In this document: positions 1,607 through 43,957 of the stretch, piece by piece
How the letters are laid out: every line of letters begins with the position of its first letter
Numbering within the stretch: position 1 is the stretch's first letter
Assembly (NCBI GenBank): GCA_905178155.1
Contig: CAJINV010000001.1
Coordinates: 2,780,089 to 2,844,088, forward strand
Reading direction: 5' to 3'
Source of the DNA: Amoebophrya sp. A120
Lineage: Eukaryota; Protista; Dinoflagellata
DNA: 64,000 nucleotides
Notes under the pieces: model-generated
What the model saw: only the letters and a program-made list of their open reading frames with translations
Told to the model about the DNA's origin: nothing
The model's database searches: none
Made by a program: the position numbers and the translations under genes

Positions 1607-4600
1607 ATGCAGAAGGAGCGGAACCAGCAGGTGCGGCAGTACATCCGCGACGAAGCGGAGCAAAAGTACACGATCATCACTTTGGAGGAGAACCTGCAGG
1701 ACAAGATCCGCAAGCTGCGCGCGGCGCACGCGGAGATCGCCCGGCTGCAGGAGATCCTCCGAAAGAACGGGCTGGAGGCCGAGGTCGTGCGGGGGTGCCG
1801 CTACAATTCCGTCGGGGCCATCGACGAGGAAGTGGTCCCGGAGGAGGAGGTATGGATTGCAAATATGTCTGGGTCCGAAAGATTCCGAGATTTGTCACGC
1901 AGTTTTTCCAAGCTCCGCCAAGGCTGGAATGCAGGGCATAGCATCACAGGTTCTGCATCTGCAGCTCGTTGGTGATACCTATTCTGCATGAGAAATGGTC
2001 TCTCAGCATGGCCAGAAATGGGGTCCTTTTGCAAGTCACGCAACGCAGACTTTTGTATGATCCGCAACACGCATGACAAGTTTCTTTACATCCTTCCAGA
2101 CCCACACACTTTTGCAGTTGATAGGACGTGGAGGAGGTGTCCCACGTAACTATATCGCCGAAGGACGAGGCGGAGCGACAGCTGGATGGCACGAACAAAA
2201 CCACGAACCTCCACGGGGCGGGCGCAGCTGGGTCAGCGTCCGAGGTGGAAGGTGCCACCGCGGTGAGGAAGGTTGAAGGTAGAGACGGAATGTAGTATAA
2301 AATCAAAAATTTGCCATGTGGCCCTCTTGAAATCAAATGACTGTGCAAGAATAACGAGTTTGCCACAAAAATCTATAAGTACCAGACTATCTTCCCACCG
2401 ATGATGTTGTTGTAGCTAGTAGAAAACGAAACTCAAAATCTCTTCAGTTCTGCACCTCCCGCCCGTGGCGTCGCTCACCGCGAAGTCCGAAAGCTCGGCC
2501 ACAGCAGTCGCAAAACCGTCCGTGCCCCTCACCGCCGACGACCTGTACTACTACCCGGAGGGCAAGGCCGCAGAGGACTTTCAGCAAGTCGAGCGAGACC
2601 CCGGCGAGGAAGCCGACTCGGAATATGAGGACATCGAGGACGCGAGTGAACAGCACGGCGTCGCCGATCGTCCAGTAGAACAAGTACTCTCTTCGAGCAG
2701 ACAAGGCTCCTCGTCCGTCGGCGTTGCTTCTCTGGTCGTAGCGAAGCCCACAGCCTCCATAGTTTCTCTCGCTTCCGACGGCAGTGACCGCGTCTCGCCG
2801 TCTGCGGTGTTGACTTCCTGCGTGTTGGAAAAGAAGAACGACGAAGCTGTCTGCAAGGAGAACAGGACATTAGCTGAAAGTAGAAGTGCCTTGAACACTT
2901 CTACCTCAGGGTCCGGGTCCAATAGCAAAAAACCACCTTCAGATAACTACACGGCGAAGAAGCCGGCCCCGGGGCTGGCGCGTCCCCCACCCGCTCCGGA
3001 GAGCACACCGGATCTGCTGGAGCAAACCCGGATTTCGAATTCGGAAGTGGAAAAGATGGAGGCGTCGCTGCGGAAAAAGTACACGAACTTGAAATGTCTG
3101 CAGCGCAGCGGTGGAGACAACATCAGCCTGAGCCAGACGAGTGGTCAACAGGTGGTCTCGCCGATGTCGGCTTCCGTGGCAACCACCAAAGTGTCTCCGG
3201 AAAAGCGGCCTCATGGGACGATCAGTGCGTTGCCGAGCTTAAACATCGGAGGCGTTACAGCCAGTATAGATCTCGTCACTTTGCAGATTGATTGCTTCAT
3301 TCAATCGCGCTTGTGTGAGTGCTGTCTTTTCTGTCGTTCCATGTATATTCAGAGTTCTCGCAATGTCTGCTCGTCTTCGTCACGGGGGTAACAACTTTCT
3401 TAAGTTCAACTTCGAATTTAGATCAAACGGTTTTTTACCAATTTTTTTACAACTCTTCCAACTAGGCTCTTCCACATCTTCTTCCCGCGAGCGTGCTGCG
3501 TCTTGTCGCCCCGCGGCCTTCGGCATCTCGGTTCCCATGCACGTGCCAACATCCGCGCTGCCGTCTCCGTGCTTGCAGTACCGTTCGCTGGAACTGCCAA
3601 CGCCGAAATGGCCTGTGCCAGCAGCATATAACATGCAAAAATGTCTGGGTCTGGAAGAATGCAAGATTTGTCTATGCATATTTCTCATGACTCATCATCA
3701 TCATGCCTGTAATGCTTGACCTAGCATCGCAGACTTTTAGAGGCCTTCCTGATGTACCTTCCGCCTGAGAAATGCTCTGTCCGTGTAGCAAAAACTGTAC
3801 CCCTCTTGCTGGTCATGCAATACAAATTTTTTTAGAGTTCAAAAACAGCATGACGAGTTGCAATCTTCCAGACCCAGACACTTCTGCAGTTTATACAGCC
3901 GTAGCTGGAACGAGCACTCCGGCAGACGCCAAGCCACGGTTCGTCACGCGCCTCAGCGCCCGACCGCCGCCTAGAATGCCAACAACCGGTACAGGGGGGA
4001 GCGCCACTGCCGCCGTTGGAACCGGGCTACCCCCGGCCAATGCGACGTACTTGCCTTTGTTTGATAAAAAAAAAACCCATGAATGTGCGTACGTGTACTG
4101 AAACCGAGTTCTTGAAACCTAAGAACAGTGTACTTTTTCGTTCTGCAGCATGTTTGATGTACACATTTGACTTTCGTTTTCCCAACACCAGCGTCGTTGC
4201 TGTGGAAACGACCAAGAGCGCGACCAGTTCCGCGGCACCCAGCCCGCTCACGGCCACCGCTGTCTCGAAGCACATGGGCGTGTTGCACTACCCGCGGTTC
4301 GCCAAGCAGCCCCGAATCGCGCAGTACTCGACGAGACCCTCAAGCACAAGCCCGGCGGCGGAGACGCCGCTGGTGTTTTCCCGTGCCGTCGTACCCGCTA
4401 CGGCTCACCAAACCAGCAGCTTCCTCCCCGCCGCGCGTGCCAGCGTCACCGGCGTGCGAACCCTGGTCGGAGGAGGAGCGATTTGTCCTGCGAAGAACAG
4501 TAACACAACCCCCAACCGCAGTCCCTCGCACAATTCGAGTTCCGTCCGCAAGCTTCGGGCTGGATCTGCGGATGATGCGACGTCGGAGTTGCAGAACCTC

Positions 4601-4831
4601 CGTGCAGCAACTTCTACCGGCCTAGACTCCTCTGCAACGCGACGACTGGGCGCTTCACCTGTGGACGGTAAGGACTCCGGTGCGGAACTGCTCATGTCCA
4701 AAACGACGGCAGACTCAGCAAAGAGCAAGGAAACGGTTACGACAGCAGAAAAGGGCGGAGAGCATCAAGAGACGAAGGAGTACTTGCGAGTGGCCCGGTC
4801 AGACACCCTCGAGGCGAGTCCGGTGTCGTAA
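1607..4831 (+). CDS. Multi-exon hypothetical protein with an N-terminal coiled coil and a Ser/Thr/Pro-rich body
   Basis: ORFs 1550-1975, 2465-3391, 3772-4101 and 4016-4831 lie in series. In-frame joins were checked for introns 1850-2124 (GT-AG), ~2272-2447 (GT-AG), the element at 3627-3895 and 4047-4191 (GT-AG); one junction (~3265-3470) is unresolved. No domain recognised. Confidence 0.55.
1851..2123. mobile_element. Introner element, family A
   Basis: TAT...ATA ends, imperfect TIR tgcaaatatgtctgggtccgaaaga / tccttccagacccacacacttttgca, flanks ggagg/ggacg. Splicing GT1850-AG2124 keeps the frame (EEE|DVEEV). Confidence 0.8.
3627..3895. mobile_element. Introner element, family A
   Basis: TIR tataacatgcaaaaatgtctgggtctggaaga / tcttccagacccagacacttctgcagtttata, flanks cagca/cagcc. 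Removal gives KWPVPA|AVAGTS in frame. Confidence 0.85.
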
Positions 4832-6486
4832 GGATACTTAAAGGTTGAAGTGGCAGGTTGACATCAAGATCTGCAAAAGAGTTTTAGTGATTTTGATTTA
4901 ATGAGGACTTTTTCAGCACATGTTGATCCGGACGAGCTTGTGGGCCAGGCCTTGCCTCTGAGTCTCAAAAAAGCCTTTCCCACAAATAGAAATTCCAAAA
5001 CAAGTCGCTCTAACTCAGTAGTCTAGTATGAAATAGATACTGCAGCGTGAGCGTAAGACAAGTGTTTTTCAAGTTCATCACTGGCTTTCATGTACATATC
5101 GCGACCGTATTGTGTTTGTGACCCGGTTTGAATATTAGACAAGAAATTGCTGTAAGAGTAAAGCTGGCTGTTTGTGTGTGCGCCGTGTCATGTTTTTGTC
5201 ATGCAGGATTCGGTTTTTAACTTTAGCTTCCCTGACGGGCATGTGATGAGCTTTCCTCACAGCACGGACCCCAACTTGTTGCAGATGAATGTTGTCGGGA
5301 TCTATCATCTTTTTTGTTGATCGAAAAGAAAAATGAACTCACAGACACACATAATGATAAGCGACGACTTTTAGAAGAAGAAGCACAACTTTACAACAAG
5401 AAAGAACGCGCAATTGCAGTAGAAGAAAATACTTTGAAGATTTTTCTGGGTTTCTGGGACCTGAGACGAGGCCGGAAGGAACGCCATCTCGTCGAATTGT
5501 GACAAGTTTAATACAATTGTGCGTAGTGTTGATGTGTGTTCGTTTATTTTGAAACCGCTCTGTTTGAACGCGACGAGGTTAATGTTGCTCTCTCCGGAAC
5601 TGCGATGGTGAACAAGAGCAAACTGGCGAGCGTCCTATCTCCTAAGTTTTCTAGTCAAGAAGCGCAGGTTTCAAAAAAAGGACCGACACGAAAAGACGGT
5701 GATGGTTTGCGTCAAGACATGCCTTGCGTCAAAACATGGTTTATTGCTCCCAAAAGATGACAAGCGACGTGCAAAGTTATCTAACTGGTGGTGAAACTGA
5801 AAGCGAAAACGAATGCCACTCTCTGATTGCACCTCTAGTACGAAGCATTGTCTGACGTCGTGTTTCAACGCAGCAGGGAAGGTGTGGTTTGTGTGTGTTT
5901 CGAATCAGTGTGCAAATCAAAAAGTTGTGAACGTCAGAAAACGAGAACGGATAGTGAATTAGAATTTGTGCTATCAGACAACCGTCTCAACAGCATTGTT
6001 CCAGAAACATCAAGATGCTTTTATCCTAATCCCTTCACCCTGGTGGCCGCGCGTCTGCTCCGCTTCGGGCGATCACACAAACTACCGGACTGAACGGTTG
6101 TTGCGAATTGAATCTGTGCCGCACAGGTGCAGCAGAGAACAGGAAAATTTTATCGTGCAAGAATCAGGACACTATCCCGCTTTGGTACTTGCAGTGTCGC
6201 GTCCGTGAGCGATTCATTGTAATCCTTCCGACTGACATTTTCTGTCCAGTTTCTAGCAGGAGCAACCAAACGTGGGCTACAACTACCGGAGCAACGTGCG
6301 GGAACCAACCAGCTATCTTTCCACAGCAACATTCATATCTGCAACAACTTCCTCATTGCAACTACAACTTCAGCCTTTTTGGTCCGTACCGAGCAGCTGC
6401 GAATTGAATTTTTTCCAGCGACTATCAAACGCATTCTCCTCCGTAAGCCGAGTTCCACGAGACAAAGAAGCACCTCCTCCTGCAAG

Positions 6487-8173
6487 ATGACGAGCGACGC
6501 GGGAGTATCGAAATCAAAAAAAGAGAAGAAGGAAAAGAAGAGCAAGAAGGAGAAGAAAGAAAAGGACAAAAACAGCGACCATCCAAGTCCCTCCGCCTCA
6601 CCTGGGGACGCGGTAAATGAAATTTTGTTATGATTTTGTTAAAGGAGCTTCGCCTTATTCTTATGAAAGAAACTCAGTAAGCGAGGTCATCTAATGGATT
6701 TTCTGCACTTTACTGAACAAGAGAACGTGAACTTGTTCTTTCACCAAACCCGCAGCATTAACCAAAAATCTCAGGCACCGTCACTTCCGCCCGGTCTCGC
6801 CGCCGCTGGCTTAGCCGGCGCGTATCCACCGTGGGGCGTTGCAGCCGCACCCGGGTGGGACCCGTGGGGACAGGGATGGCATCCCGCCGCCGCTTCGGGG
6901 CACCACTGGGCCCCTCATATGGACCCGAACGCCGCCGCCATGATGGCTGCCGCCGCGGCGCACCAGGCCGCCGCAGCAGCCGGGCACCACCTGGTGCCGC
7001 CGCACGACGCGGCAAATGCGCTCTCGGGTGCGTTGGAAAAGGCGCTGAGCAGCCACCTGAGTGGGAGCTCGGAACGCAAAAAGAAGAAGAAGAAAAAGAA
7101 GCGCAGAAGCCGTTCGTCCGATTCGGAGGAGGAATCGTCGGAGGAAATAAAAGTCCGCACCATCGCCAATCCCTTCGCTCGCTACGGCCACGAATCCCAG
7201 CCACCACCGCAGCAGGGAGCGCAGATGCCAAGGAGCGGAGATTACACGAGCGAAAAGCTGGAGGCGATAGGAATCCACGAAAATCCTATGCGATTGTCTT
7301 CGATCAGGGCGACTTATCATTATCAGCGGAAGATGTCAGTGTCATGCGTGTTTGAGGACTCTAATGATCTGTTAACACCGAGATCTAGATCACAGGTTAC
7401 GTGAAATGTCTACCACCTCTCACCACCTCCTTGGGCTTGGACTTATGAACTGGAGTTCAATCCCAGTTTATTCGCTGAAAGCCGCCACAATGGTAATGAT
7501 AATTGGTTTGCATCCTATACCAGCAGAACTAGTCGAAGGCCTCCTCGAATGGGTGGATGAAAATAGGGTGAAAACTTTTTTTAGCTTTTTTTTGTCCACT
7601 TCAATCATGGGTAGACCACGATTTCCAACAACAGCGTCGGTTACTTAGTTCCTGCTGATAGTTCGGTGGAGGTCGTTCTTGTACCAAATTGCAATAGAAA
7701 AAGCCGAGCATGTGCGTCGTTTGGCAGCGTCTCATAGTTGGTTCCAGTCCCGACAGATACATTCCACAGTTTTTACTGGACAGCGCAATGCTGGCACAGT
7801 AAAATCTTTCAGTAAAGAATTCTTTGGTATAAAACATCTTTGTGCAAAACGAGATGGAACCTCCAGTGCGAGTGAGTAAAGGCATTTGCGCACCATGCAA
7901 GTATTGACGAGCTTCGACCGTGCAGATCGTACTGCTGCTGCAGCCGGAAGGATCTCAGTAGTAGATAGATCTCTATACATACCTACGTACACAACTGTCC
8001 GCCTCGCGTTTTTTCACGGGAGAAGTTACAAGCGCACTGGTGATTGTAGCTGGAGGAAGGTTTCCTATGTATTGATGAGCACGACGGCGGTTCAGCAAAA
8101 CAAGTTGTGCGGCGGGCCTTCATTGTCATTCGTGAAGCCAACAAATTTTGCTTTGAAACTGGAGGAGAAATAA
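6487..8173 (+). CDS. Multi-exon hypothetical Lys-rich protein, probably nuclear
   Basis: ATG6487 MTSDAGVSKSKKEKKEKK..., a GT-AG intron at ~6612-6774 leading into the Ala/His/Pro-rich, KKKKKKKRRSRS exon, then several short downstream exons. The 3' structure is uncertain. Confidence 0.45.
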
Positions 8174-8578
8174 GTACTGAGTGCCGAGGTAGTTGTGGAC
8201 TGCTAACGTTGAATCGCAATCGGGGTGCCACCGCGAGCATGTTAGAAATCCGAGATGAAAATCATAAGTAGACCGCATCCTGTGCCTGCTGCATTTTTAG
8301 TCTGTGCGACTGATGCAAGTCTTCATGCCATGCCCATGCTTGTAGCTGTAAGTGTGCCTAATATGGCCAGACGCATATATCTCTATTATGGCGCACGCTT
8401 AGCGTGAGACCGACCAAGCTGCCTGTACTAGGGACAAAAGATTTTGACGTTTAGGCTCTTATTTATCTCTAGTACGTAGTTCTTGTAGCTGCTACACCTT
8501 TGTACATAGTCGGTTGTAGCTACTCCACGTCCTCATGTTTGTGTTGCGTATTTCCCGGAAGATGACCACGCGTCAAAA

Positions 8579-10453
8579 ATGTCATCGAAATTCCCCATCA
8601 ATACGAACCTCTGCAGATCGATCAAGACGCCTTCGTACGGCTTCGATGCCTCGTACGAAACTGGGACGAAAGTTGTACTATAGGAAGAAACAAGTTGTGG
8701 GAAAAATGTAACACAGTTCGTCGTGGTCCACCACTAAAATTCGAATGTTTTTTCTGCAGCTGCAATCAAGTTGTGCTTGTGTGTGCTTCAGTTGTTTTGC
8801 AGCCACACCACTGCAAAGCCAGAGCCGTTGAGCTTTTGCATTATTGGCATCTGAATTGCCATTGCAACGAGCAGCTGACGCCGTAAGATTCCTCGAAAGT
8901 AAAACTTGTTCCCTGTGCTCCTTTCTTTGCCCTTCAATACCGCACGGTGGAGTACCAGCACAAAATCATGGTAAAAGGCCCGGTTGGGGACGTCGCGAAC
9001 CCGGCCAACGTGCTGATCGCGCGTATACGCGATATGCTCAAGCACCCGATCCTGGGAGCGCCGAGACCGGGGAAGAAGGCACAGCCAACGCTAGAAGAGA
9101 AAGAGCACCTGGAGGACAGTACACGTTTGTTATACGCGGTTTTCTTCTGAATCTGATTGATTTACTTATTCCGAGCTGCACCTTCCTGCCTGTTCATGCG
9201 AGTACTAGATTGGACGTTTCCGCTTCGCTATCGTGCTTGAAGAGATTTGTAGTTGTGCCGACATTTCTATCGGTACCACGTTGATGTAGTTACTCATAAG
9301 TTCAAAAAAAATGACACCAGTGCGCGCACTGGAGATGCAGGCACGAAACAACTACCAGCAAGAGAACCAGAATCAGAGAATGAGACAGCGATACGACGAA
9401 AGAGACGGAAAAGGCGGAAAGAGGTATACATAGTAATCATCTGCGTATAAAAATCCTTTTCCAGCACCTTCATGGACGGCTTTCTTCATGGTCATTGATT
9501 TGGTTTTTGGAAAAAGTTAGTGTCGTAGATGTACAAAGTAAACGTTCTTCCTCTCATCTTACCCCGACTCGTTTAGGTATGACGGCTACCACGACCGTCC
9601 GTACGGCAAGTGGGGCCGCGCTGCCGCCTCGCCAGAGGTGATCGGGCCGAGTTTATCGGAGCAGCAAGAGAAGCTGTCCCAGCGGGGAGGCAGCGGCAAG
9701 TACAATGGCGGAAAATACGGCAAAGGCGGAGGAGGACGGCACAAGGACCACCAGCGAAGTATTGGAGACTACAACCACAGCAACGGCGGTGGAGCATCAA
9801 ACCAGCAGAACCTAGCGCTGACCAACGTCGTCGACCCCTCCATTGACGCGCGACACGCCCCCCAGTTCGTGCCAGCCACGGCCGCACAACACTCGTCCAC
9901 CTTTCCTCCCGGAGGAGAGAGCGTGCATCCCCCGCACCAGATCCATATGGGCGGCGCAGGTGTTGTGCCACCAGCACACCAGCAGCAACCCGGGGTAGTG
10001 ATGATGCAGCAGCACCAGCAGCACAGTATGAACACCGAGCAGCCGCAGCGCGAATCCACGCCAACGACCACATCGAATGGGCAGGCCATGCCGTACGGCT
10101 TCGGAAATACCACGGTGAGAGGACAAACGACGCCACGGAACCACATACACAGCAACCTCCCCGGCGGCGGCGGACAGGGGCACCAGTCCTTTGCCACCAA
10201 TGGCGGGTTTGTTCATCCACAACACCATGTACTTCCGCACGACCAGGTAGGACATCATCTTCCGCAGCACCACCCGCCACCAATGGCGCACTTTGGTGGA
10301 CCTCCTCCACCAGAGATGACCGGCCCGCCGCATCACCAGGGCGGGTATCGTGCGCACCAACAGGGTGGATACCACCAGGCACCTAGTGGCGGTGGTCCAT
10401 ACGGAAAGGGCTTTGCACCGGTTACCTTCGCGGATGTTCGGGGGGCGTGCTAA
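8579..10453 (+). CDS. Multi-exon hypothetical protein with a Gly/His/Gln/Pro-rich low-complexity C-terminus
   Basis: Short + strand exons (8579-, ~8760-8882, 8946-9120) followed by long ORF 9638-10453. No family recognised. Confidence 0.45.
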
Positions 10454-11558
10454 CGGAGCAGTCTTGAGCGAGGACTACATAGGATTTTTCTAGTAGTGCG
10501 GTGCCTGTGCAAGTAACATACATGGAGGACCATTAACACGCAGCACTACAACCTGACGAGCGACCTTTTGGGATTGGAAACGACCAATGGAAACGAATAT
10601 AAATAGTTTTTTCCTCGAAAACGAAAACGAAATGAACCTGATGAACCAGCGATGAGTATTCGCCCGGCGACCGCGCGACTGTTGCGACGTCAATTGTACG
10701 CCTGCACGGCAACTACGTCCAAAACTCAACGAATACTTCGTTATTTTCATCTGAGAGCGTCTTCTTTCGGCGACAAGGGCAGAAGCAGTAGCGCATGTTA
10801 TCTAGTACAGCGATATAATTGTGGCGCTTTTCATTTAAGACGAACGACTACGACCACTTTCTGCTTGCGGCGAAAAGTACTCTGCGCTCTACGGTGGCTG
10901 ACGGCATCCGCGACTCTCCTGCGGTGGTCCACAGCAGCTACTTACTCTTAAAGCAGCACCACTACCTCTTGAGCACGCAGGACATAGACTCAGGGAAAGT
11001 TGAAACACTTTTAAGCAGTGCGAGGACCACGTCAGTGTTACTGAGACTTTAAGATGGAGCACACCAGGACTCGACGGGCTATCGGGACGCTCTCCCCGCA
11101 CTGATTACGTCTTGTCGCTGCTCAGATTGAGCGTCAACATTTACATCGAAGAGGTGAGCTGTGCTCCACGCGGTTTCCCTTCTGATTTGGACGGTTTTCT
11201 TTTTTTGTGTTCGCAGAATTCAGTTACTTTTTCGCTGCAGAGAAGGCACTGCATCTTCACAGTTGTGCCGTTTTACGAAGAGAATTCGTTGTTGGGGCAG
11301 ATGAGCGTTAGCACGAGGGTCAGAAATTATAAAACTCAAGTACTTGTTTTTGATAGGAGAGAAAGGTAGAAGTGTCTGATACATACAAGAAAGAGGAAGA
11401 CTTCTCACGTTCGAGGTATCTGAATGAACGTCTGAAAGAGCAGTAGAAATTTTACGTCACATCTTGGCTCAGCGAGGTTGTTGCTGACCAGGCTCAGGAA
11501 TAGTAGTAAGTAAAAGCAATCCCGAGTCTTGATGTGTTGATCGCGCCGGGGGACAAGG

Positions 11559-14500
11559 ATGAAAACTTGGCAAATCCAGCCGGTCCCGACGATGCGCGGC
11601 GTCCCGTTCAGCTTCTTCGCCGGCGCCTTGCCAGTCCTCACACGGTCGCAGCACCTTCTGCAGCGCGAGGGCGTTCGTTCAGCAGGAGCAGACACGCCCT
11701 TGTCTGTTGTAATCTCTTCAGGTCCAGACTCTTTTTTGGAACAAGCCGCGACCTTGTCTATTGCAGCTAGGGTGCTGGAAAAGCATCAGGCTATAGAGAC
11801 AGCAGGAGATACTTCAGCACTCCCATCCGCTAGTACTAGTACAGCAGCAACGAGCGACGAATTTTGCGATTCTCATTTCGGCGCCGGGCTTTTACGCCGC
11901 TACGATGAAAATCCCGTCGTCCTATGCGGTCCCAAGAAGAAAAATAATGGACCAGCAGAAGGTGAAGGACACGACGTAAGCACACCTTCGAGCAGCGACG
12001 ACACTGAAGCTGCAGCCTCATATCTACAGTGCAGCGGGCCCAAGCTGAAGCTCGAGGGAAGCAAAATCGTAGAGCTCGGTAAGGGCGCTTACTGTTGGGG
12101 ACGAAACTTGACCTTCGTGAAACAAGGAAAACACGGCGACGCCGTTAGCGCGGCAAGTTCCGATGACTGGCGCTGGGTGCTAGAGGCCAACTGTGACTGG
12201 CAGATAGATCCTGCGTCCAACCTGCGGCTTCTGATATCCAACAAAATGTACTATTTTTGCAGTCCTTCTACTACGGAAATCTACTTTCCCAACGTCTTGC
12301 TGCTAGCTAGGCATGTTGATAATGCAGTTTGGCGAATTTCATCAAGCCGTTATGATAAAAACTTTCAAAAGAAAGGAAGCACTTAAAACAAGCTCCTCCT
12401 TTGAATACTTTTTTTATCTGGATACCGAAACCGCTACCAGTACTACGATGGCCCGGTACCAGCAGGCGACCCGGAGGTGTATCTTCCTGTACCACGAGAA
12501 ATTCTCGATCAAAGCAAAGGGGGAGCAGCACAGGAAGGCTCGTCACTCGTGCACGAGCAGGCATTCCGGTCCCACTTTGATAGTGATAGGAAAAGCGCGA
12601 CGGGAAGAAACACCGTCGGAGATCTTCACGGCGCGTCGAGGTCACTTTCTCAAGCGACGAGAGGACAGCACGACAGTGCAGCGCAGCACAGCGGGAGCAC
12701 AAGAACAGAAGAGCATCAATCTGAACAAGTGTCAGATACCTTGTTTGTCCTCTCCTACTTTGAAGACGCCTGGAACCCGAGCGAAGGTCTCCCGCAATTG
12801 TTTGCCGTTCACCTCACCCAGCTGCGCGCGTTCCAACAGCTGCGCGGTTTGAATGGCAAAGACGTACTAAACCTGAAAGCCGCAGGGACACAAGAAGAAG
12901 CTTCGCTCGGTGTAGCTCACGGGGATCTTCTCGTTCTAGAGCGAGACCCCGGTCGCCGACATGTTTCGAAGCCCCACGTCGTGCCCTACATGTTTCGCAG
13001 GATGGTGAACGGGACGTATGTATCCTGAGGGCATAAAATCCCGCCGTTCCCATATTGAAAGGCAAAACTTGTGATGCAGGAGACCATCGGTGGCCACAAT
13101 GAATCACAAATCGAGTGCAGAGGAGGTATGCCTACGCGCCGCATTATGGAAGCGATTTGGCACCATCCGCGTGCAGCTGTCGGGCCTACAGGTTAGGCGG
13201 CTGCAGCCATACTAAGCAACTAGATGCGAACGCCCCGCCACCGGCCGAGGATGTGGCTGCAGTTCTTTACTGCAAGACAGCTCGTTAAGTAATTTGTGTA
13301 TCGTTCTTACGCAAGACGTCAAGCCTCAGAAGGAGCTTTGTCTGAAGAAGGGGGACGGATGTTTCATTTTGATACTGTGTACGGTCCGACGAGACGCCGT
13401 TGACACATCAGACAGGAGAAACTGCGAAATCTAGTACAACGGCGGGCGCGTTTCTTTCTCTGCAGCCAACCGAGCCAGTAGACACACGACCATCTGCGCC
13501 GCTCGCCGCGCCAATAAACCAGCAGCAAAGCGGTCCACGGCACCGGCTACAGCACGGAGAGCGAGGCGGAGCCTATTTGGAAGTAGAGCAGCACGGTCGT
13601 GCGCCGGAGCTTTCGGCGCAACCTGAACACCGGACCCGTTGGACGGGAAAGAACGTTTTTTTCGTAATTGGCACGGACGAGGAATGTTCTCTCGGGATTG
13701 ACTGCCGTGAGTACCCAAAGGACGCGGCAAAGCCTGGCTGTACAGGCAGCCCTACTCCAGAAACATCAGGCACCGGCCGAAGTACTAGTACAAGCGTCGA
13801 TACACAACAACCACACGACTTCCCGCGCTTTTCGGAATGCAGGGGAAAGGGGCCTTTCCTGGATTCTGCAAGCCGGCACGTGATACAAGCATTCCAGCCG
13901 TCAACTACATCACCTGCGACATCCGTAGTGGATTCTGCAAGCCGGCGCGTGATACAAGCATTCCAGCCGGCAACATCTGCGACATCCGTAGTAGGGGCAG
14001 CAGCAGCTGCCGGGGGACGGGAAGTAGATCAAAGCTGGAGTGGAGGCAGTGACTCAAGTGCTGCGGTACTCTCCTCTGCTTCATCTCGGGTTTCTGGTAT
14101 GGAAGCAAATAATCTTCTTCACGACCCATCCTCGTCGTCGTGTCTGATTCTTCTGTACAATCGCCACAGCCATCGTCGAGAGGCGGAGAACCAGGAGGAC
14201 GCAAAGTTCACGCTGGAAAGCAGCTTGAACTTGCAGGAGCACGCGTTGAAGACGAAAAATGTTGCCCGCGAGCGGCGTGAGGCAGAGTTTTTCCACACTC
14301 TGCGAGCGATCGCCGAAGAGGCCGAGGCAGAGCACGCAGCAAATGGCGCGAGGACTGCTATGGGATCACTCGCTGCGATGGGGCGTTCTACGGAGGTCGA
14401 GCGGGAAGATGTTGCAAAGAACGCAAAAGAGGCGGGGGCGGGGGCCCTCGGCAGGACGACATCCTGTGTGGTGGAAGACTATAATCCCGATCCTGACGTA

Positions 14501-15935: not shown

Positions 15936-17221
15936 ATGAAAAAACAGGTCGTGCGCTCGCCGGTAAGATTCAACCACAATCAAACACCGCTACTAGCCGA
16001 ATAAACAAAGCCAGCCGGGTAGACGAAAGATGTTCTAGCTGTTGAAGCTGATGAGAACCGGCTTCGGTGAAGATATTACATATTTGGACCATAACATGTA
16101 CACAAACGTATAGCCATAGTTGTAGAAGCGGCGGGCGCTCCTGTACGTACAACGGTTCTGTGGGATGCTCAAGCACAGGGCGAGAGCTATCTGCGAAGCG
16201 AGGACTTGTTTTAAGAAAAAACTAGAATACAAGAAACGCCTTATTACCATGCTACCGACTGAGCAATCCTTCCCAAGGAATACGTGAGTGAGGAAGGAAG
16301 CAAAATGTAAGGACATGCACATGCACAATTGTAAAATCTGATCAACGTCTACTTCTACTGTCCTCGGCAATATGATCTATCAATTCGGATTCTCCCAGGA
16401 ATATCACTGATTTTAGGTTTCGTTCTTCCATGGAGGTAGAAACAAAAGCCCACTGAAAGCAACGGCTCGTCTACCGAAATTGATTGGGCTGGGCATGGCA
16501 TTTAGGGTAGGATGAAGAGCAAGAAGCAAAAGGATGCTGATGTCGTCCTTTAGTTGAGAAGTATATTTGATTAGCTGAATTATATAAGTTAGTTTAGCGC
16601 CCCTGCAAGGCGCCCGGTAGTACAAAGGCCCAAGTTCTAGTGGGCCTGGCGCAGAGCCCAGGAAAAAAAAGACAGACACGAAAGCGTCGCAGCCAGCCGC
16701 AGATGGGCGCGCCGGCCGTAGCGTAGGGCTCGCGCAACACGTCCGCTCGACGGCGTTCTGGCGTGTCGGCGGAGGGTCTTCCCTACATCCGCCTGTCTGC
16801 GCCAAGCGTTTTTGGAGGCGCTGGTGGTCCAGGCCGCCGAAGTGTCTGCTTCCTCCCTGGGCAGCAGACAAAGCCGATCCCGCGACCACTTGCATCCAGC
16901 GGGTGTTGTATTGCTAGGAAATATTGCAGGATGTTGGCGCACCCTTGGCCTGCGTGCGGCAGCGTGCCCGTTTGTTGTTCTTTTTGCGGACGAATTCCAA
17001 TTCGACAACGACAGCGTGGAGCGAAGTCTTTGGCTGCGTTCGGATAGAATTGCCACGGTTCTTTGGCGACTGGCAGGGTTTGAATCGTCAGACGAGTAAT
17101 ATGGAGCTTCTTCATTGTTTCGTAAACGACTCCCAGTTTGTTTGGCAGTAGCGGAAAAAACAGCTATACTAGAAGCTCACCTTCGCCGCCCACATAGCTC
17201 CTCCAACAAAAAAGCAAAAAA

Positions 17222-19217: not shown

Positions 19218-20038
19218 GCTAGCAAGTCGCGAGGTAGGAGGACAACGGTTTTTGTTCACGCGTAAGAAGTATTTTGTGGGCATTCACAGTGAAGTGCTTG
19301 GGTGTGTTTCAAACTGTTTCTTGAATTGACAAAAAAAGCCCGAGAATAGAAGTCATTCTGTAAACAGTAACGGTTTCTCTGGAACTGGATGTAAAATCGG
19401 CATTATCAGAAGTTTCGAGGTGGAATAAAGAAGACATCGTTGGACAATTTTTGAAGGCCTTTGCAAAAAGGGCAGAAGGAATACGCCAGGTAACGAACAA
19501 TTCATGAAATAAGCTCGTGGCTTGCTGTCTAAGTCTATCGACGAGATGTGGGAGGGCAAAATGACTGCAGAGAACGTTTTCTGCACTTTGTGGCAAAGTT
19601 ATGCATCTGCACTGTTCTTTGTCCTACCAGTTACAGTTTATGCTGTTGGTCTTTGAAAAGTTGGGGAGAAAGAACGAAAAGGGGCCCAGTCGACTCGCGA
19701 AAGAAAAGTATTATTTAAAGTACATGATTCTTTTTGTGGTACGATGCAACCACGGACATCAAAAAGCGAAAAGCAAACCGGTCGTGATACAACATTTTTG
19801 CCGCTTATTCATGAAATTCACACCCCATTTCATTTTGGATTTTGGTTTTGCATTTTTATGTTGCGTAGCGCCTGCGCTTGTTTGAATTGACGTCTTTGTA
19901 CCATACAAACAGTTTATCGCAGCTTTTGGTTTTGCTCCCGCTTCACTATCAAATCCTGGGCCAGATTTCTCTCAAAAATCTTCTTGTTCTACGATAATAA
20001 TTTTTACCAGTGACAGGAAATAAAGCAATACATAAATC

Positions 20039-21660
20039 ATGGCGACGACGTTTCTGTCCTCGTTGTTTCAGACAAAGGACGAGCTGGTTCGGGATCTTGA
20101 CTTTGTCAGTGCGTGTGACGACGAGGTGGAGTCCGATGAACTGAAGGAAAAATTTATCCTATGCAAAAACGTCCCCACACCAGAGTCAAGATGGGGATCT
20201 CGCAACACAAATCTAGAAGCTTTGGGAGTCACGCATGACAAGTTCCTCTCTGCATTGTAGTGCAGTCTAGCAAGTGCAGCTACATCCCAAACCCATCTAC
20301 CCATCCTGTTTACAGCATTACAAATTCCAAAACACGACTAAAAAAGCCTCTCCTGGCGATGCGCATTACAAATGTTCCTGTCATTGCAAATCTGCATGAC
20401 AGCTCTGGTGCGGGGACATTTTTACTCAGGATAAAATTTGCCCGCATCAAGATGCGCATCGAACCCGTGCACCGGCTGGAGGAGCGAGCAACGGCGATGA
20501 AATACATTCAAGAGACGATCTACGACACCAAAAAGTGGCGGAAAGTGTACAACGGGCTTCGGCTACTGGAGAGGGTAAGCATGTACACGACGGTCGCTTC
20601 TACTTTTTCACAAATTATATCTCATTCTCTTTGTTCGCATCGATCATGATAGGGGGACCGGACCCACCAGTGCAGCCATTATTCCTGGTCTACATGATTT
20701 TCACTTTCTTGCAGCAGGCTGCAAATTGTCACGCAGAATACAACTCGCACACGACACGCCTCAGCCAATAACTTACGTGCGCTATTTCGCATAGGTTTCC
20801 GAGTTTTTCCCATTGCCATACACAAAGAATTGTACCTTCAGGTGATGCAAATTCAAATCCTGGCCGAGGAGCAGCGAGAAGGGCGTCACTTCGACGTGGT
20901 CCAGCAATGCAGCTTGCTGATGAATTTTTCGCACGAAGACAGCCGTGTGACGAATCTGGTGCGCCAGCGGGCAAAGCACGTGCGCGAGCGGTGTCTCGAC
21001 TTGCTGAACTTGACGGACACCAGTTCCGCCGCGGCGGGAAATAGTAGTAGTACTGCTGCCGCGGCGGGGGCAAGCACTAGTTCGTCCTCTACTGCGTCAC
21101 CGAGTGCGCAGCCCTGGTCTTCCATGAACAAAAGCAGCAGTGCAGCGTCTCCGGATGCAGGAGCTACTCGGAGCAGCCAAAACGGCTCAACGAACCTGCT
21201 GGACGACGACTTCAACGTGCAACAGTCGAACCCCTCCGCGGCACGGGGCAGCAGTTCTCTGGCAAATGCCAATAACGACCTCCTTGGCGGAGGTGCAGCT
21301 CCCAGTCCGGAAAACAAGTTCGCCCAGTCGGGCGGTCCTGCAGGTTCTTTACAACCCGGCCCAAACCGCGTGTACGCGAATTTTTACCAAAGCGACAAAC
21401 GCGGCGCGGCGCTGCAGAACAGTACTGGGAGTACGATCTGCTACACAAAGCACCGAGAGGACACCAGCAGCGAGGAGGACGACGACGACAAACCGCGCAG
21501 CAGCACCGGCGGCCCGGCCTATCCCCTCGGAATGGTACCGCCGCCCCCAGGAGGGGGAGCAAGCGCCGGATCATTCGCAACCACGGCTAGTAGTGCTGGT
21601 CCTGCTGTTCCCCCACCTCCGAGCAGCGCAACTACCGTTACGGATCTCATCGACTTGTGA
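20039..21660 (+). CDS. ENTH/VHS-like (epsin-like) trafficking adaptor
   Basis: Spliced product ...LKEK|FARIK...KKWRKVYNGLRLLER|VMQI...DSRVTNLVRQRAK resembles the ENTH helices (WRxVYKxLxLL, VRxxAK). The disordered tail has clathrin-box-like NLLDDD, DLL and DLIDL. GT-AG intron 20575-20841. Confidence 0.65.
20155..20433. mobile_element. Introner element, family C
   Basis: TIR tatcctatgcaaaaacgtccccacaccagag / ctctggtgcggggacatttttactcaggata and a perfect TSD AAATT. No GT/GC-AG register for exact excision. Confidence 0.9.
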
Positions 21661-24223: not shown

Positions 24224-25796
24224 TTGCTCAGTGCGGTGGGGCCGTTATCTTCTGGAATAGTGATCGCGACGGGGACGTGTCCTCCGATTACCATGCCGAG
24301 GCTGCCATCGACCATCCCTGCGTTTTGTACAAGGGCACCCTCCTCAGTCCCCCACGGCCCGCGCCTGTGGTGCGTTACGTCCTCGCCTAAAGCGCAGCTC
24401 ACCGCCGTGCTGGTGTTCCTCTCAACGTTTTTCCTGTCCGCGGTCGGTTCGGAATTTTCGGACACACACAATGAGGAGGTCGCTGTCGACCCGTCCGCTT
24501 CGATCAAAACGGAGCAGCGCATCGTGTTTGCGAGCAGTACTTTTACTTACGTCTCAAAATACCTATTTCATCTAGGATCTGATTCGTATGCAAACATGTT
24601 TCATGCATGACAAGGATATCATAATCAAACATAACCTTACAGCGGCCGACGGGTTGCGAGAGCAGGTCGAGGCTTTGCTCCACGAAAACAGGCTGCTCAC
24701 CGCAAAACTCCGGAATCATGAGCAGACCTACCGACTACAAAAAGCTGGGGCGAACGATAAGAAAAAAGAACCGGCTCTTGCGTCTGTGACCGCCAGTACT
24801 TCTTCCGCTCCTACATCCTTCATTGAGTACATGGTCACGACTTCGAGCGGCAATACTACCCAACCAGCGGTGGAAGAATACCAAAACCAAGGAACGGGTT
24901 CATCCGCGAGTCCAGCTTTTTCGGCTGCGCAAAAAACTACGAATGGGAGAGAAGATGAAGAGGAAGAAGCGACTGAGGTGAGCAACCTCCTGGATTTATT
25001 GGTGCGCAACGAACAGATCCGGGTTGCGGCCGAGCTGCGGCTGGAGGAAGCGGCGTCTAAAAGAAAACTCGCGGAACACCGCGAGCGGGTGGCGCAGCGG
25101 GAACTGGACAACGTCGACCAGGTGAGCAAGGGCGTGGTGGACATGCTGATGCAGCAACTGAAGAAGACGACGAGCTTGTTCTTTTCCTGGCTGGAGGAAG
25201 CCGGAAACGATTTCGTCGACACGTTGATTACCCACATGATCCAAGAGTTCAACCTGCGGGACAAGAACGGAGATTTGGTCCTGGACAAGGGCGAATGCCC
25301 GAAGCCGCCGGATGGCGCCGACCTGAATGAGGATGACAAACTCACCCCGGTGGAAGCGCTGGCGTATTTGCTCCAAAACATTACGCAGGACGCGGGGAAT
25401 GTGGTCCCGGGGGAGGCGACGACAAAGGACAAGGCGCAGTCGGGCCAGGGCAGTCTGTTGGAACTGGCCCAACATCAGAGTAGTTGGCGGACGTTTTGGT
25501 CTGATTGTTGGAGGAACAGCATGTGCGGCGTCGATGAGGCTGAGGCTTCCTTCGAAGAGGCTGGGGCTTCCTCCGAAACTGGCGAGACTGAGTCTTCCGT
25601 GGGAGATGTGCGGCGTCGAGAGTCTTTCTCCGATCTTTGCGGGATGTGCGGTTGTCCCGAGCGTCCCGACCGCAAAACCGAGATGGAAGAGCTGGAAGAA
25701 TGGGACCGGCGAAGATACCGTCCGCCACCATATGGATATGAACCCTTTCCCCTTGACCCTATGGATGCTGGAGCGCGGTCAATGAGAATGAATTGA
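24224..25796 (+). CDS. Hypothetical membrane-anchored coiled-coil protein
   Basis: Hydrophobic segment LTAVLVFLSTFFLSAV. GT-AG intron 24537-24642 joins IVFAS|TADGLR in frame. Start uncertain. Confidence 0.5.
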
Positions 25797-26613: not shown

Positions 26614-29600
26614 ATGGACCTGTTAAACGAAACCGCGCGCATCTATGGCGTTCTCAACTGTTACATTCTCAACTGTTACATGAATTTGTGATGCAAGAAT
26701 GGCAAAAGTGATAGGAGAGATCTTGCGCGTCTTGCATGACAGATTTGGCGCCGATTATCGGCCTGCTTGGCCCTCTGAGAATTTGTCATGCGAAGCAGCT
26801 TGATGGTGTAGATTCTGTAGGCAATTCTGCATGACAAATCATGTAACAGTTGAGAATGTAACGTTTGAGAACGCCATAGCATCTGGGTGGAGAACCACCC
26901 GACACTCGGGTGGTGCGCGGCGCGCGTTGACGGGGTAGATGACGACGGCAACTACATCGCGGTAGACGAAGAGGTATGCATTGAAAAAGTATCGTACTAG
27001 TAAGACTAGCATTACAAATATTTCCAGAAGGAAAAATGAAATTTGTAATGCTGCATGAGCTAAGGAACCAGATTTGTCATGCATAACAGCAATTAAGAGT
27101 GCGATACTTTTGCGCTGCATAACAGGGGCAGCAGTTCAAGGTCCCCCAGGACAAAGCCACGAGCGTCGATCCCTCGTGTCTGAAGGGCGTCCAGGACTTG
27201 CTCACCCTGGGGGATTTCAACGAGGGCTGCCTGCTGCAGAATATCCGGCTGCGGTACTTCGAGGACAAGATCTACACGGGGATCGGCGCGCCCATTCTGG
27301 TGTCGCTGAATCCCTACCAGAAGCTGACGACGCTCTACTCACCCGAAACCATGGCAGAGTACCGCAGACTGTCTTCGGTATCATGCACTTTTTAGTTCTT
27401 GTTACAAGTGTTCTTCGTCATCGTCGTGTTTTTGCCGCTACTGCGGTTGAACATTTTTTCAGGTACAAATGGATTCATTCTACTAACTTAAACTCGTTTT
27501 ACCATATCAATTGTACTCTTTGACGACCTTGTTGAGCATCCTGTTCACAAAAGATGCTGCGTTACTACATAGGTCCGCAAGCAAAACCGCGACCTGAGTG
27601 TGGCCCCGCATCTGTTCAGCGTTGCTTCGGAGTGTTACGACACGATGCTGGAGGAGCGGTTGAATCAGTCCATCATCATCACGGGCGAGTCGGGCGCAGG
27701 CAAAACTGAGGCGACAAAGCGGATTTTGAACTACGTCGCCAACATCCAGACACCAGCGTCCGCAACGGCAACTTCTGCTGGAACCACGGCAGCTTCATCG
27801 CCCGCGGTTGGCTCTTCCGCCTCGTCTTCCTCCACAGGAGGAGGCCCTGCGAGTTCTAGTTCTAAGCGGAGTATCGAAGACCAGGTGTTGAAGAGCAACC
27901 CGATTCTGGAGGCGTTTGGGAATGCCAAAACGGTCCGGAACGACAACAGTTCGCGTTTCGGCAAGTTCATCGAGATTCAGTTCGACGCGCAGGGCAAACT
28001 GCGGACGGCGAACATCCGGAACTACTTGCTGGAAAAGTGCCGTATGAAATGCAAATATGTCTGGGTCTGGATGAGTACAAGGTTTGTCATGCATATTTTC
28101 CATGCGTCGTGACGTGAACGTGATGTCTGTGATGCATGCCTAGCATCACAGATTCTGCGAGAGCTTTCTGATGCTCCTACCGCATGAGAAATGCCGTCTT
28201 TGCGTAGCAACAACTGGACCTCTTATTTTCCTGTTCATGCAAAAATACAGATTTTATGTAGAATCCAATGGCAGCATCACAAGTTGTTGCACCCTTCCAT
28301 ACCCAGACACATTTACATTTGATATGCCGGATCACAGCGCAACAGGCGAACGAGCGGAACTACCACGCCTTTTACTTTCTGCTCGCCGGGGCGCCGGAGA
28401 AACTGTTGGCGCAGCTGCATCTAACGTCCGAATCCGTGCCAGAGGATTTCGACTTCGTCTCCGTCTGCAGCGTCATCGAGGGTGCGGAATTCTCCGACGA
28501 GGAAGAATTTTTGAACGTGCAGGACTGCCTGCACCGGCTGAAGTTCAGCAAGGACGAGATCGAAACGCTGTGGAAGTGCTGCGCGGCGGTTCTGCTGCTG
28601 GGGAACGTGGATTTTCTGGAGACCCCGGTGGACGGCTCGGAGGACAACGTGGAGATTGCGGACCACGAGAGTGTCTGTCCGCCCATCTGCGACTTGCTCG
28701 GGATACAAGTGGACGCGTTGCGCGGGGTGCTGCGGTCGAAGAAGTTTTACGACCCGATCTCCAAGGCGATGTTCACGTCGCCGCTGCGGGTGGAGCAGGC
28801 AAAGCAGGTGAAGTTGTCGATCGCGAGAACGCTCTATTCCCGCATGTTCGACTGGATTGTCTCCCGGATAAACAGCAGCATGCAAGAGGAAAACAAAGCA
28901 CAGGGAACGTCAAATTCTGGCGGTGCAGCGACTCCATCAGGTGGAAATCCAAGCGCCGCGGGCCGCGCGTCCGCCACTGGGAGCAGTTCGTCTACCGGTC
29001 GCGGGGCGGCAGCGAGGCAGGCCGCGCAGGATGCTAGCGGGCACAAGGTCGGGCTGCTGGACATCTACGGGTTCGAAGTGTTTGAATGGAACTCGTTCGA
29101 GCAGCTGTGCATCAATTTTGCGAACGAGAAGCTGCAGCAACACTTCAACAGTCACATGTTCCGCATGGAGCAGAAGCTGTACACGGAGGAAAACATCAAC
29201 TGGAATCACATCACGTGTATGCATTGCAAAACTATCGTACTAGTATAAATCGCATGACAAATAAGTTTTCCAGAAGGAAAAATGGAATTTGTCATGCAGA
29301 TTCAGGTAAGAGAGGAAGACTAGATCTGTAATGCAAGGCTGTCATTTATACGAGTGCGATACTTTTGCTGAGGATAACGTGGCTGGACAACCAGGAAGTA
29401 ATCGACGCACTGGAGAAGAAGCCGAACGTATCAAAAGGAAAAATCCCCCCTCCCCATATCAAAACGGAAATCTGTGATGCAGATTTGTTGTCACAAATAA
29501 GGTTTGTCATGCTACACGGGAAAAGATGCGGAGGCGGACTGTAGTGCTGGGTGGCGTGGGGGAGCCTTGCATCTTCAGCATGATAGGAGGCAGCTGAGAG

Positions 29601-32600
29601 TGGGAAACAGCATGACAAATTGCCTGCAAACGAGACCACGACTGCGGCTCTTGGCCTTCTAGCGTGACAAGTCGATTTGGTACCTCAAATCCTGCATCAC
29701 AGATTTCCATTTCGATATGGGGAGGGGGGATTTTTCCGTTTGATAGAACGGCGTGTTTCCCCACCTGGACAGCACGTGTCTCGGGCCGAACGCCACCGAC
29801 GCCGCGTTTCTCCAGGCGTTGTACACGAAGCCGGCGAAGCCCAACATCATTTACAACCCCTCGAAGCAGAAAACGGACCTGTTCGGGGTCGCGCACTACG
29901 CCGGCGAGGTTTTGTATTCCGTCGACGGGTTTTTGGACAAGAATTATGAGAAACAGACGGACGAAGCGCTGGAAATTCTCCGGGAAAGCAAGAACGACCT
30001 GATAAAGAAGTTCATGGAGTTTTCCAGTTCTGGCACTGCTGGTGGAGCGGATAACTCCTCCTCTTCTGCTGCAACTTCTTCTGCCGGCGCAAGCAGATCC
30101 TCGACCGCGGGGCGCGGATCCGTCGGCATGCGCGGAAGCCGGTCGATGACGAGCGGGGCCCGGGGCAGCGCCAGTGCGACGGACAAAATCAAGGGCCCCC
30201 AGGGGACCGTGTCCAGCACGTTTCGCGAACAGCTGGACGCGCTGGTGGCGGACCTGAACAAAACGCATCCGCGTATCCTGCGTAAAAACGTACCCACACC
30301 ATAGTCAAGATGGGGAATCGGCTAGACAAATCCACAAGTTTTGGCTGTTTAGCATGACAAATTTGGACTCGTATTGTAGTGCTGTTTGAGCTAGCTCAGG
30401 AGCATCACAGATCTAGCATACCATGCTGATTGGAGCATGACAAATTGCAAAACACGACTATAAAATGCTTCTCATGGGGCTCCGCATGAGAAACATTTTC
30501 AGCATGCATGTCCCTATTGATGGGTTTTATCTTTCTCTTCCTCAGGAATGTATGGATATATGTAGAAAAGAGGTAAATTTAAATGAAGAGAAAGATAAAA
30601 AAGAAAAAAGACTGATTGGACTCAGACAAGCTTCTTTGTTTTTCAGTGCCACTTGTTACACCCGGAATACGCTCAAGTGCCAACAGGGCGAGAGCCCTGC
30701 AAGACCGGGCGTCAAAATAAGTCCAGACGGGAAAAACGCCAAAGATACCCGCGCCTTCTGCTTAACTGTGTGAAATATTGTGTCGGCCCGGTTCTGCTCA
30801 GACAGGCTGGATCCCGTAGATCAGATTTCACATGTTAAGTAACGCACACCGGCCTCCTAGCAAAAAACTAATGATGAATTTATATGAGCAAAGTGATGAA
30901 GATAGAGCGCAGCGGCTTACTGCGCAGCGTCGGTTCGTGCACGTGTGTCGCCCTTCGTTCGTTGCTTCCAGGAGCATGATCGCAAATTCGTACGCTCCTC
31001 CTGCTTTGAAAAAAAAAATCCGATCTTCCCGTCTGCCCCCATCTTCCCATGTAGAGTTAGGTCTCTGCCCTTTTATTGCTTCTCTCGTGTAGATGTGTTG
31101 TTGTTTTACCTGACTCGCCTTCTTAGCGCTAGCCCGCGTAGCCCGCGTCCTTGCAGGGGCAGCTGTTTTTTTTCCGCCTTGCCAGCGGGTTTTGTCGCGG
31201 GGAAGAAAGCAATCTGGGTTCAACGGTCCCCGCCCCCCCATCATCGTGGGTTCGACGGCCCCCGCCCCAAAGGAGACCACTTAGAAATATTTTTTTTGTA
31301 GAGTGCAAATTTTCACTGCGATCAACCGTTCACCATCGGCTGAAGCTGCACATGCATCCGGAGTAGTTTTGAAAAATTAACTTTATTGCCCGCGGCTTAC
31401 GGGTTTCGTCTAAAGGTTCTTCGTCAGGGTGCGCGGTTTCTATTATTGGCGTTCGGCTTGGTCGCACCCTATGGCTAGTATCTGAGATCAGAAGACCATT
31501 TATTTCGGGGGACAGTAGCGCGCGAAAAAAGTTCGTCGCGGGGGCACCCCGCATGGTTCGTTTTTATATGCTTTCCGCACCATGCATCGATGGCCGGGGG
31601 TTCGGTCGTGTTTCCCGCTGGGCTTTTCAAACGCGGGTTTGCAAAGCCCGTTTGCATAGGGCGTTCCCAGTATCCGCGTTTACATAGATCCCGGATATCG
31701 CCCCCTATGGGCAACTATCTCCCTAGACAGTGGCTCCTCCCTATCTTTACTACCGTCAGGTGCAGCGGCTTTCTGCACATAGCGCCTAGTCTCGACCCAT
31801 ATCGACCCCCCTTGCTATTCGTCCCACAGCATAGCAACGTCCGCCGCGGCTTACGGCTATAGACGTTAACTATATCGTGGGGATTTTCTATGCGTGTGTC
31901 CGGTCCGAGTTCGAAAAAGGGTTCAGGGGTGACCCCCCTGTATGCATGCGGATTTATGCTTCCGAAGGGTTTAGGGTTTTGATTTGTATGGACCAATGCG
32001 GCGCGCACATCGAGTTTCCTGGCAGTGTCGACCTGCTGTACACGGCGTAACCCCCGGCGGAAATAGACCGGAAAACGCATCTGAAACTGAAACTGAAACT
32101 ATGAGAAAGAGGGGCCTAATCAAAAAAAAAAAAAGATTTGCATTACAAGTATGGGGTGGGTACGTTTTTACTCAGGATACCGCGGTACATCCGCTGCATC
32201 AAGCCCAACGCGAACAAGGCTATGACCTGCTCAAACGTTACAATCTCAAATCGGTTACCATAGAATCTGGAATTTGTGTTGCATGATGGGCATGACAGAC
32301 TCGCACAGCGTTCCACCTTTTGCAATACAAATTTCGACAGAATGTAGTGGGCTTTCGAGACCCGGAACTTGTCATGCGCAACCCTATGAGAGTTGGCTGG
32401 ATCATGCTCATCATGCAAGACAAATCTCAGATTCTATTGTAACGCTTGAGATTGTAACGCCTGAGCGGGTTATAAAGGCGGCGCACGACTTTGACTCGAT
32501 CGACGTGTTGCGGCAGTTGCGGTGCGCGGGAATGCTGGAAGCAATACGGATTCGGCGCGCGGGGTACAGTGTGCGTCGACCGTTTCGGGAGTTTCTCATG

Positions 32601-42353: not shown

Positions 42354-42431
42354 TTGCAATTTGCGAACTTTCAAAAGCTCGCGCGATTTGGGAAGTCGCC
42401 CAACGCCCAACAACGCCCAACAACGGCCAAC

Positions 42432-43852: not shown

Positions 43853-43957
43853 GGGCGCTTGGCCCAACGGTTAAGGCCCCTAGGTCGTCGTCGACACCCG
43901 ATTTCGATCACTTTTATCATAGGTTCGAATCCCGATGGTATCGTCGATTCGAACCTA
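43853..43957 (+). ncRNA. tRNA-derived Pol III-type unit 1
   Basis: A-box TGGCCCAACGG (43860) plus TTAAGGC and B-box GGTTCGAATCC (43922). No anticodon arm. Confidence 0.5.

Follow-up and report, generated by a model that had tools for sequence, protein, structure and literature searches.

The closest described counterparts of the elements reported here come from the same organism, Amoebophrya sp. A120, for which about 30,000 repeated non-canonical introns have been published, with no detected U1 small nuclear RNA (PMC7789003, Farhat et al.). In that account the inverted repeats of the introners start with TAT, seven variable bases and AAA, and the elements carry direct repeats and have non-canonical borders. 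The direct repeats are given as 3-5 nt of variable position, including a 5-bp example, in 1954 families with no clear splicing signature, and in the commonest A120 repeats four bases lie upstream of the 5' end; the sections drawn on give no rule for the cut position and no mobiliser. We analysed a 64-kb stretch of A120 DNA (the window), in which twelve introns start with TAT, end with ATA, have terminal inverted repeats (TIRs) and are flanked by a 5-bp direct repeat, the presumed target site duplication (TSD).

The window elements have the TAT-N7-AAA start, the direct repeat at their borders and the repeated occurrence of the published introners. They differ from that account in that the repeat is 5 bp long and lies at the TAT boundary, that one internal motif is common to the families, and that a single register accommodates all splice joints; this register may be foreshadowed in part by the published remark on the four bases preceding the 5' end. 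A second data set (PMC12130899, Gozashti et al.) contains an A120 family, fam38, with the same ends and TSD, which is likewise an intron-making TIR element. It differs in having five copies of about 810 bp with Copia/Gypsy-like open reading frames (ORFs), whereas the window elements are 147-400 bp and non-coding. Most other A120 families in that data set are labelled 'TIR DNA, Unknown'.

Outside Amoebophrya, IS3EU and GingerRoot transposons have TIRs, no base-specific target and TA..TA (TAY..RTA) termini (PMC10045372, PMC6839031), and TA..TA termini were found here. Their TSD is usually 6 bp, whereas a perfect 6-bp repeat occurred at 0 of the 404 TAT boundaries described below. Ginger2/TDD elements have a 4-5 bp TSD and an integrase-type enzyme (PMC10045372); the 5 bp seen here fit Ginger2 but not Ginger1 (4 bp), and the TG..CA ends of both are absent. 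The nonconventional introns of euglenids and the non-canonical introns of Fritillaria are also derived from TIR/TSD elements and have non-canonical junctions, with euglenid stems at fixed offsets from the intron ends (PMC11282704). They differ in offsets and consensus, since the stem runs here from +2 to -5 and the acceptor is free.

The elements, their TAT-N7-AAA starts, the direct repeats, the lack of a detected U1 and, for one family, the TA/TA signature with a 5-bp TSD are therefore already known. A uniform 5-bp rule across the whole clan, a shared motif and one fixed splice register combined with near-random targets were not found in the passages and tables compared from the published A120 introner accounts (PMC7789003, PMC12130899), a comparison that did not cover the figures or Roy et al. 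2023.

Elements of the window and their removal from transcripts

An earlier note on this DNA had listed twelve TAT...ATA introns with TIRs and a 5-bp flanking repeat in four genes, the repeat being perfect in eight and matching at 4/5 positions in four. All twelve were present at their spans and both counts were confirmed; the note was also right that introners with inverted and direct repeats are known from Amoebophrya (PMC7789003). It had missed two decayed members within the same span (8654-8939 and 13021-13374). A stricter scan of the window (TAT..ATA, inverted repeat at least 16/24, direct repeat at least 4/5) returned 11 of the twelve and two matches in a tandem array, against a mean of 0.13 matches per shuffled window (30 shuffles). 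An inverted-repeat scan recovered 10 of the twelve, each bounded by TAT...ATA and with flanking 5-mers that agree at four or all five positions. The other two, a 1906-bp element above the length limit and the element at 14948-15310 with a gapped TIR, were verified separately. The family letters A-F in the following list are labels of this analysis.

1851-2123: TIR introner, family A, in gene 1; flanks GGAGG/GGACG; intron 1850-2127 (GT..AC)
3627-3895: TIR introner, family A, in gene 1; flanks CAGCA/CAGCC; right-hand fifth base kept in the transcript
8654-8939: decayed member, TAC..ATA; flanks CCTCG/CCGCA; TIR lost, no motif; element plus 5 nt skipped
13021-13374: decayed member; flanks GTATG/CTGTG; element plus 5 nt skipped
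14948-15310: TIR introner, family F (gapped TIR), in a gene with a weak GT61 match; flanks CAAGG/CAAGG; GT..AG in the shared register
15424-15823: TIR introner, family A, in a gene with a weak GT61 match; flanks GCTAC/GCTGC; left-hand fourth base kept (CT..TG)
20155-20433: TIR introner, family B; flanks AAATT/AAATT; no joint among the transcript rows listed
26614-35742 (start approximate), + strand: host myosin gene, holding seven elements; exon identical to A120 protein P0001
26644-26878: TIR introner, family D, in the myosin gene; flanks GCATC/GCATC
26975-27121: TIR introner, family E, in the myosin gene; flanks AGAGG/ACAGG; GT..AG in the shared register
28043-28324: TIR introner, family A, in the myosin gene; flanks TGCCG/TGCCG; four internal motif copies
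29218-29376: TIR introner, family E, in the myosin gene; flanks ACGTG/ACGTG
29429-29745: TIR introner, family C (clustering with B by TIR), in the myosin gene; flanks GAACG/GAACG
30274-32179: family B introner with a nested insert, in the myosin gene; flanks CCGCG/CCGCG; removed as one 1911-nt skip
30509-32133 (boundaries approximate): nested insert of about 1.6 kb; A run at its end; loose end in run X9 at 30508
32221-32474: TIR introner, family D, in the myosin gene; flanks AAGGC/AAGGC

The long element at 30274-32179 is an element of about 285 bp that carries the nested insert. Six-frame translations of this insert had no match in Pfam, and a 220-bp part of it matches locus L060.

Transcript evidence came from runs X3 and X5 (X3 = X5), assembled contigs of a single sample, whose RNA status is presumed and is supported by skipped GT-AG introns. 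In these contigs 11 of the 12 elements are skipped together with exactly 5 further nt; for 20155 no joint was among the rows listed. Two further skips of the same kind led to the decayed members. The window elements thus lie in A120 genes and are removed from transcripts, with 13 joints in total. The DNA-like run X1 contained none of the splice joints and was unbroken through 3859-20184; excision at the DNA level was rejected, as the elements are retained in this run. Metagenome run X9 yielded no empty-site joint, and the raw-read RNA runs X10 and X11, with 5 and 116 reads only, all on repeats, were uninformative. The earlier statement that removal of an element with one TSD copy restores the frame holds in so far as the transcripts lose exactly this length, but the reading frame alone does not distinguish +5 from +2 or +8; the transcripts do.

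The spliced myosin gene reads through 801 codons without a stop, and its 801 amino acids recur unchanged within the annotated A120 protein P0001. Alignment with 10 homologues revealed no insertion of residues in it at the six junctions left by the elements, as far as the homologues extend over them. The single 5-mer copy is therefore the ancestral state, and intron-less orthologues keeping both TSD copies, which had been named as evidence against a common insertion signature, were not seen.

Target sites, ends and motif beyond the window

Loci beyond the window were retrieved by the TIR pattern of one family. They number at least 154, all with one assembly prefix, and amount to 589,726 bp of non-redundant sequence; about half of the locus rows have long flanks. 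Loci and window have element families in common and no shared unique sequence among the best 25 matches. We examined all boundaries of 953 inverted repeats, with neither the ends nor the TSD length presupposed. At the 404 TAT boundaries, perfect repeats of 2 to 10 bp were found 39, 8, 2, 264, 0, 0, 1, 0 and 0 times, respectively. A perfect 5-bp repeat was thus present at 264 of 404 TAT boundaries, against 4 of 2825 boundaries with other trinucleotides; TGT boundaries had it in 0 of 66 cases. The constant TSD length and the enrichment of TAT/ATA, on which the earlier note had staked its proposal, are borne out in these loci.

A targeted search of the loci identified 377 elements (299 with a perfect repeat, 78 at 4/5), compared with 11 in 698 kb of shuffled loci. 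The 360 elements shorter than 450 bp, together with 14 window copies, formed 11 TIR clusters and 18 singletons, and a 5-bp TSD predominates in every cluster. A codon model oriented 201 of the 360 elements, with agreement within loci in 175 of 182 cases. The two orientations relative to the gene occurred in ratios of 31:39, 5:6, 9:10 and 4:5. Among the 201 oriented elements the target 5-mers are near flat (chi-square for the fifth base, P=0.28). Selection of GT at the target site was considered, as G is found in 9 of the 14 window elements, and rejected, since the distribution is flat in the 201. Both orientations and near-random 5-mers agree with an enzyme that cuts DNA at random sites with a 5-nt stagger, and with splicing blind to the target. 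The elements have the traits of miniature inverted-repeat transposable elements: they are short and non-coding, have TIRs and a site-specific TSD of constant length, and occur in either orientation. No match to the TIR patterns of the clan was found in the viral contigs or prokaryote genomes searched. Rfam gave no match.

The earlier note had regarded the families as unrelated. This could not be maintained, as they have two features in common. The ends read TATS-N6-AAA(AA) and are followed by a family-specific block, with TIR positions 16-30 specific to each family. In addition, the window elements, 3.9 kb in total, contain 36 copies of the motif YTGTVATGC (13 of the 14 have it), against 10 in the 58 kb outside them. 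In the loci, 1052 matches were counted in the 360 elements versus 6.75 in shuffles; 346 of the 360 carry the motif, as do 170 of the 181 elements outside the family used as bait. Most matches outside called elements (374 of 452) have a TIR-like end that was not called, or the edge of a locus, close by. The outermost copy lies about 30-50 bp inside an end, in an orientation that depends on the family.

The motif favours neither strand of the gene, and in 40 of the 201 oriented elements GCATBACA is missing in the sense direction. On the simplest reading of these sequences, it would be a binding site on double-stranded DNA, for the transposase or for a host protein. A function as sense-strand branch point was rejected because of the missing strand bias, and one in internal stem pairing because family B copies carry one orientation only. 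The motif was absent from three non-TAT inverted repeats inspected. It is present in a satellite-like array at L032:1740-2110, whose motif-bearing units have no clear TAT ends. Three introns of the window that look like GT..AG introns (47207-47416, 47844-47999 and 24537-24642) also contain YTGTVATGC with no clear TIR, a joint being seen for 24537-24642 only; they are possibly old introners that have turned canonical.

Splice register, mobilisation and alternative explanations

The position of the cut was expressed as k, the number of bases of the left repeat copy that are kept, which can be read where the two copies differ. Joints 1851 and 15424 need k of at least 4, 3627 and 8654 need k of at most 4, 13021 needs at least 3 and 26975 at least 2; the other seven are free. 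Only k=4 is compatible with every one of the 13 joints. At this value the intron consists of the last base of the left copy, the element and the first four bases of the right copy (N-TAT...ATA-NNNN). GT..AG borders of the U2 type are possible at k=4 in 2 of the 14 window elements and 6 of the 201 oriented elements (10 of 201 at any register), and both window elements able to be GT..AG are so at exactly k=4. At 1851 an in-frame GT..AG was available, its AG formed by the final A of the element and the next G, yet the transcript was cut three bases later, giving GT..AC; element+2 splicing at GT..AG was thus rejected for 1851 by the assembled transcript.

The ordinary introns observed start with GTA in 10 of 11 cases, which suggests that the TA of the element mimics donor positions +2 and +3. 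Donors at k=4 in the 201 oriented elements are AT (59), GT (55), TT (44) and CT (43), and the acceptor is AG in 22. Published tallies point the same way: T is at +2 in all 9 'predominant' A120 non-canonical sites of Table S4 (PMC7789003), and the fam1 donors of the Gozashti data set, summed in this analysis, are xT in 892 of 1322 (PMC12130899), both tallies being dependent on how aligners place ambiguous borders. In A25 the ends are TTA and the donors TT. The introns are likely removed at fixed distances from the element ends, and not at GT-AG signals. The last base of the intron, the fourth of the right copy, has 7 of its 12 mismatches in the loci to C. Together with the AC end of 1851, this hints weakly at a preference for AC as acceptor; the direction of TSD mismatches (41 cases) was uninformative. 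An inferred non-canonical intron at 14585-14891 in the GT61-like gene, with no joint among the transcript rows listed, starts with TTAAG and lies outside the TAT/k=4 pattern.

Alternatively, the cut could be set by the matching of the direct-repeat copies, or vary from intron to intron. For seven of the 13 joints the repeat allows no exact placement, and the sites have been published as variable (PMC7789003), both of which would suit such a scheme. We consider it unlikely, as elements with 3/5 repeat identity still lose exactly +5, compatible with k=4, and NT donors dominate Table S4 (PMC7789003).

The anatomy of the elements, the 5-bp rule, the near-random 5-mers, the two orientations in genes and the removal of the element plus 5 nt are, in our view, best explained by a single clan of non-autonomous DNA transposons that owes its mobility to a DDE transposase of integrase type (Ginger/IS3EU-like), with its gene elsewhere, and that is spliced at a register set by the element ends (probability roughly 0.6). 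The DDE enzyme would make a 5-nt staggered cut, with the invariant TA ends as its cleavage sites and the YTGTVATGC copies as binding sites for the enzyme or a helper. The intron would begin one base ahead of the element, placing the TA of the element at the canonical donor positions +2/+3, and would end four bases past it, the paired ends serving as a ruler. Such a ruler would restore any 5-mer exactly. A fixed register would make insertions into exons nearly harmless and would cause the non-canonical borders of A120 to look like NT..NN. We also put forward, tentatively and as somewhat less probable than its opposite, that an undescribed integrase-type lineage (TAT ends, 5-bp TSD, subterminal motif) made most introner introns of A120, and that a machinery lacking U1 splices them by a -1/+4 ruler, without regard to the G of GT or to AG, so that each insertion would vanish exactly from the mRNA. 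The end signature, the motif and the register make the questions of cut site and mobiliser directly testable. If true, splicing able to cut a transposon cleanly out of whatever site it has entered would illustrate clearly how host machinery and mobile element can be adapted to each other, and the register would fix the intron borders in A120 gene models.

As to the enzyme, the earlier note had proposed one transposase type for all families. The single signature beyond the window, the two orientations and the near-random 5-mers speak for this, but no transposase was found in the window, the 590 kb of loci or the long copies (about 0.65 Mb), and the multi-kb coding copies that the note had suggested looking for, or any autonomous element with the same ends, were absent from the window and the 590 kb. 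The long TAT...ATA copies in the loci have no transposase and proved to be short elements interrupted by unique or nested sequence, or ends paired by chance. The ORFs of the 1.9-kb element gave no transposase. Motifs of integrases, reverse transcriptases, hAT and mariner gave no convincing match over loci and window, and Pfam searches with the nested insert and four long copies, each translated in six frames, gave nothing relevant. The TA..TA ends, typical of IS3EU/GingerRoot (PMC10045372, PMC6839031), speak for an integrase-type enzyme. The best indication for an integrase comes from fam38, which has TIRs and Copia/Gypsy-like ORFs and is annotated as Ginger with '5-bp TSD, TA/TA Termini'; according to the text it has no true Ginger ends or homology, and several other A120 introners look similar (PMC12130899). 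Given one clan, an integrase-type mobiliser is the rather more probable choice.

Several points weigh against the single clan and its register. Besides the missing transposase in our own searches, a Repbase-domain search by Farhat et al. found none in A120, and these authors concluded against general mobilisation by transposases; they also call the splice sites variable relative to the hairpin (PMC7789003). Only the data set annotation places fam38 in the clan. The loci were selected through the TIR of a single family. In the 56 A120 families (of 58) for which we have published automated calls, the TSD varies between 2 and 11 or is given as NA; it is 5 in six families if a column that bears no label is read correctly, and fam65 resembles Mutator, having a TSD of 8-9 bp (PMC12130899); not all A120 introners, then, belong to the clan. 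The motif also occurs at 44698-44795 of the window and in the L032 array, away from clear TAT ends. For the register, 6 of the 13 joints are informative, the contigs stem from one sample and, being assembled, hide minor splice forms, and a single shared register is an assumption. Finally, 8654, which has lost stem and motif, and 14948, with no predicted pairing in the exact register, are both cut at +5, which argues against a strict requirement for the stem.

A hAT5-like transposase could have moved the same clan, with the same splicing. The earlier note had excluded hAT on account of an 8-bp TSD; this argument fails, as the TSD of hAT5 is 5 bp (PMC12730594), as in the elements here, and family fam135 of A120 has hAT5/hAT6 terminal hidden Markov model matches in the published data set (PMC12130899). 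The repeated subterminal motifs of the elements would also suit a hAT5-like mobiliser. Subterminal repeats bound by the enzyme are typical of hAT. We nevertheless regard this as improbable: hAT5 belongs to the animal Blackjack lineage (PMC12730594), the Repbase-domain search found no A120 transposase (PMC7789003), and the sole family combining the signature with coding homology points to a Copia-like integrase (PMC12130899). Several transposases, or an undescribed enzyme, might instead be involved, with TAT, the A run and the motif kept by selection for splicing or by a host DNA-binding protein. The family-specific TIR positions 16-30, the differing orientation of the motif near the ends, the identity of TA with the canonical +2/+3 and the persistence of the motif in the GT-AG introns 47207-47416 and 47844-47999 and outside TAT elements can be read in this way. 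Selection for splicing alone, however, does not fix the TSD at 5 over 2 or 8, which would keep the frame at some register, while 5 predominates in every cluster and the motif is without strand bias; we therefore doubt this explanation, although less so than hAT5. Spread of the introns as RNA by reverse splicing would require no transposase, and none was found in window and loci or by Farhat et al. (PMC7789003), but it is contradicted by the equal orientations in genes and the site-specific 5-bp duplications and seems very improbable indeed.

Other features of the window

A distinct TIR element at 41430-42353 is bounded by ATC...GAT and flanked by the 4-bp repeat TTGC; the empty form of its host repeat is present in locus L025. 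Another inverted-repeat element, of 1.2 kb (43705-44905), has TATACAGGG...CCCTGTATA near its ends and contains a palindrome of about 100 bp (44698-44795) with two inverted YTGTVATGC copies. Repeat arrays with units of 18-19 bp and 11-12 bp, a repeat of about 270 bp common to two regions and TTTAGGG-like runs occur at 42420-43535, 45650-45920, 49746-50330 and 50455-50515, in gene-free stretches adjoining assembly gaps. Between the myosin gene and these repeats lie a gene for a dynamin-family GTPase (36457-38740) and an ORF for a DOT1-type methyltransferase (39297-40619).

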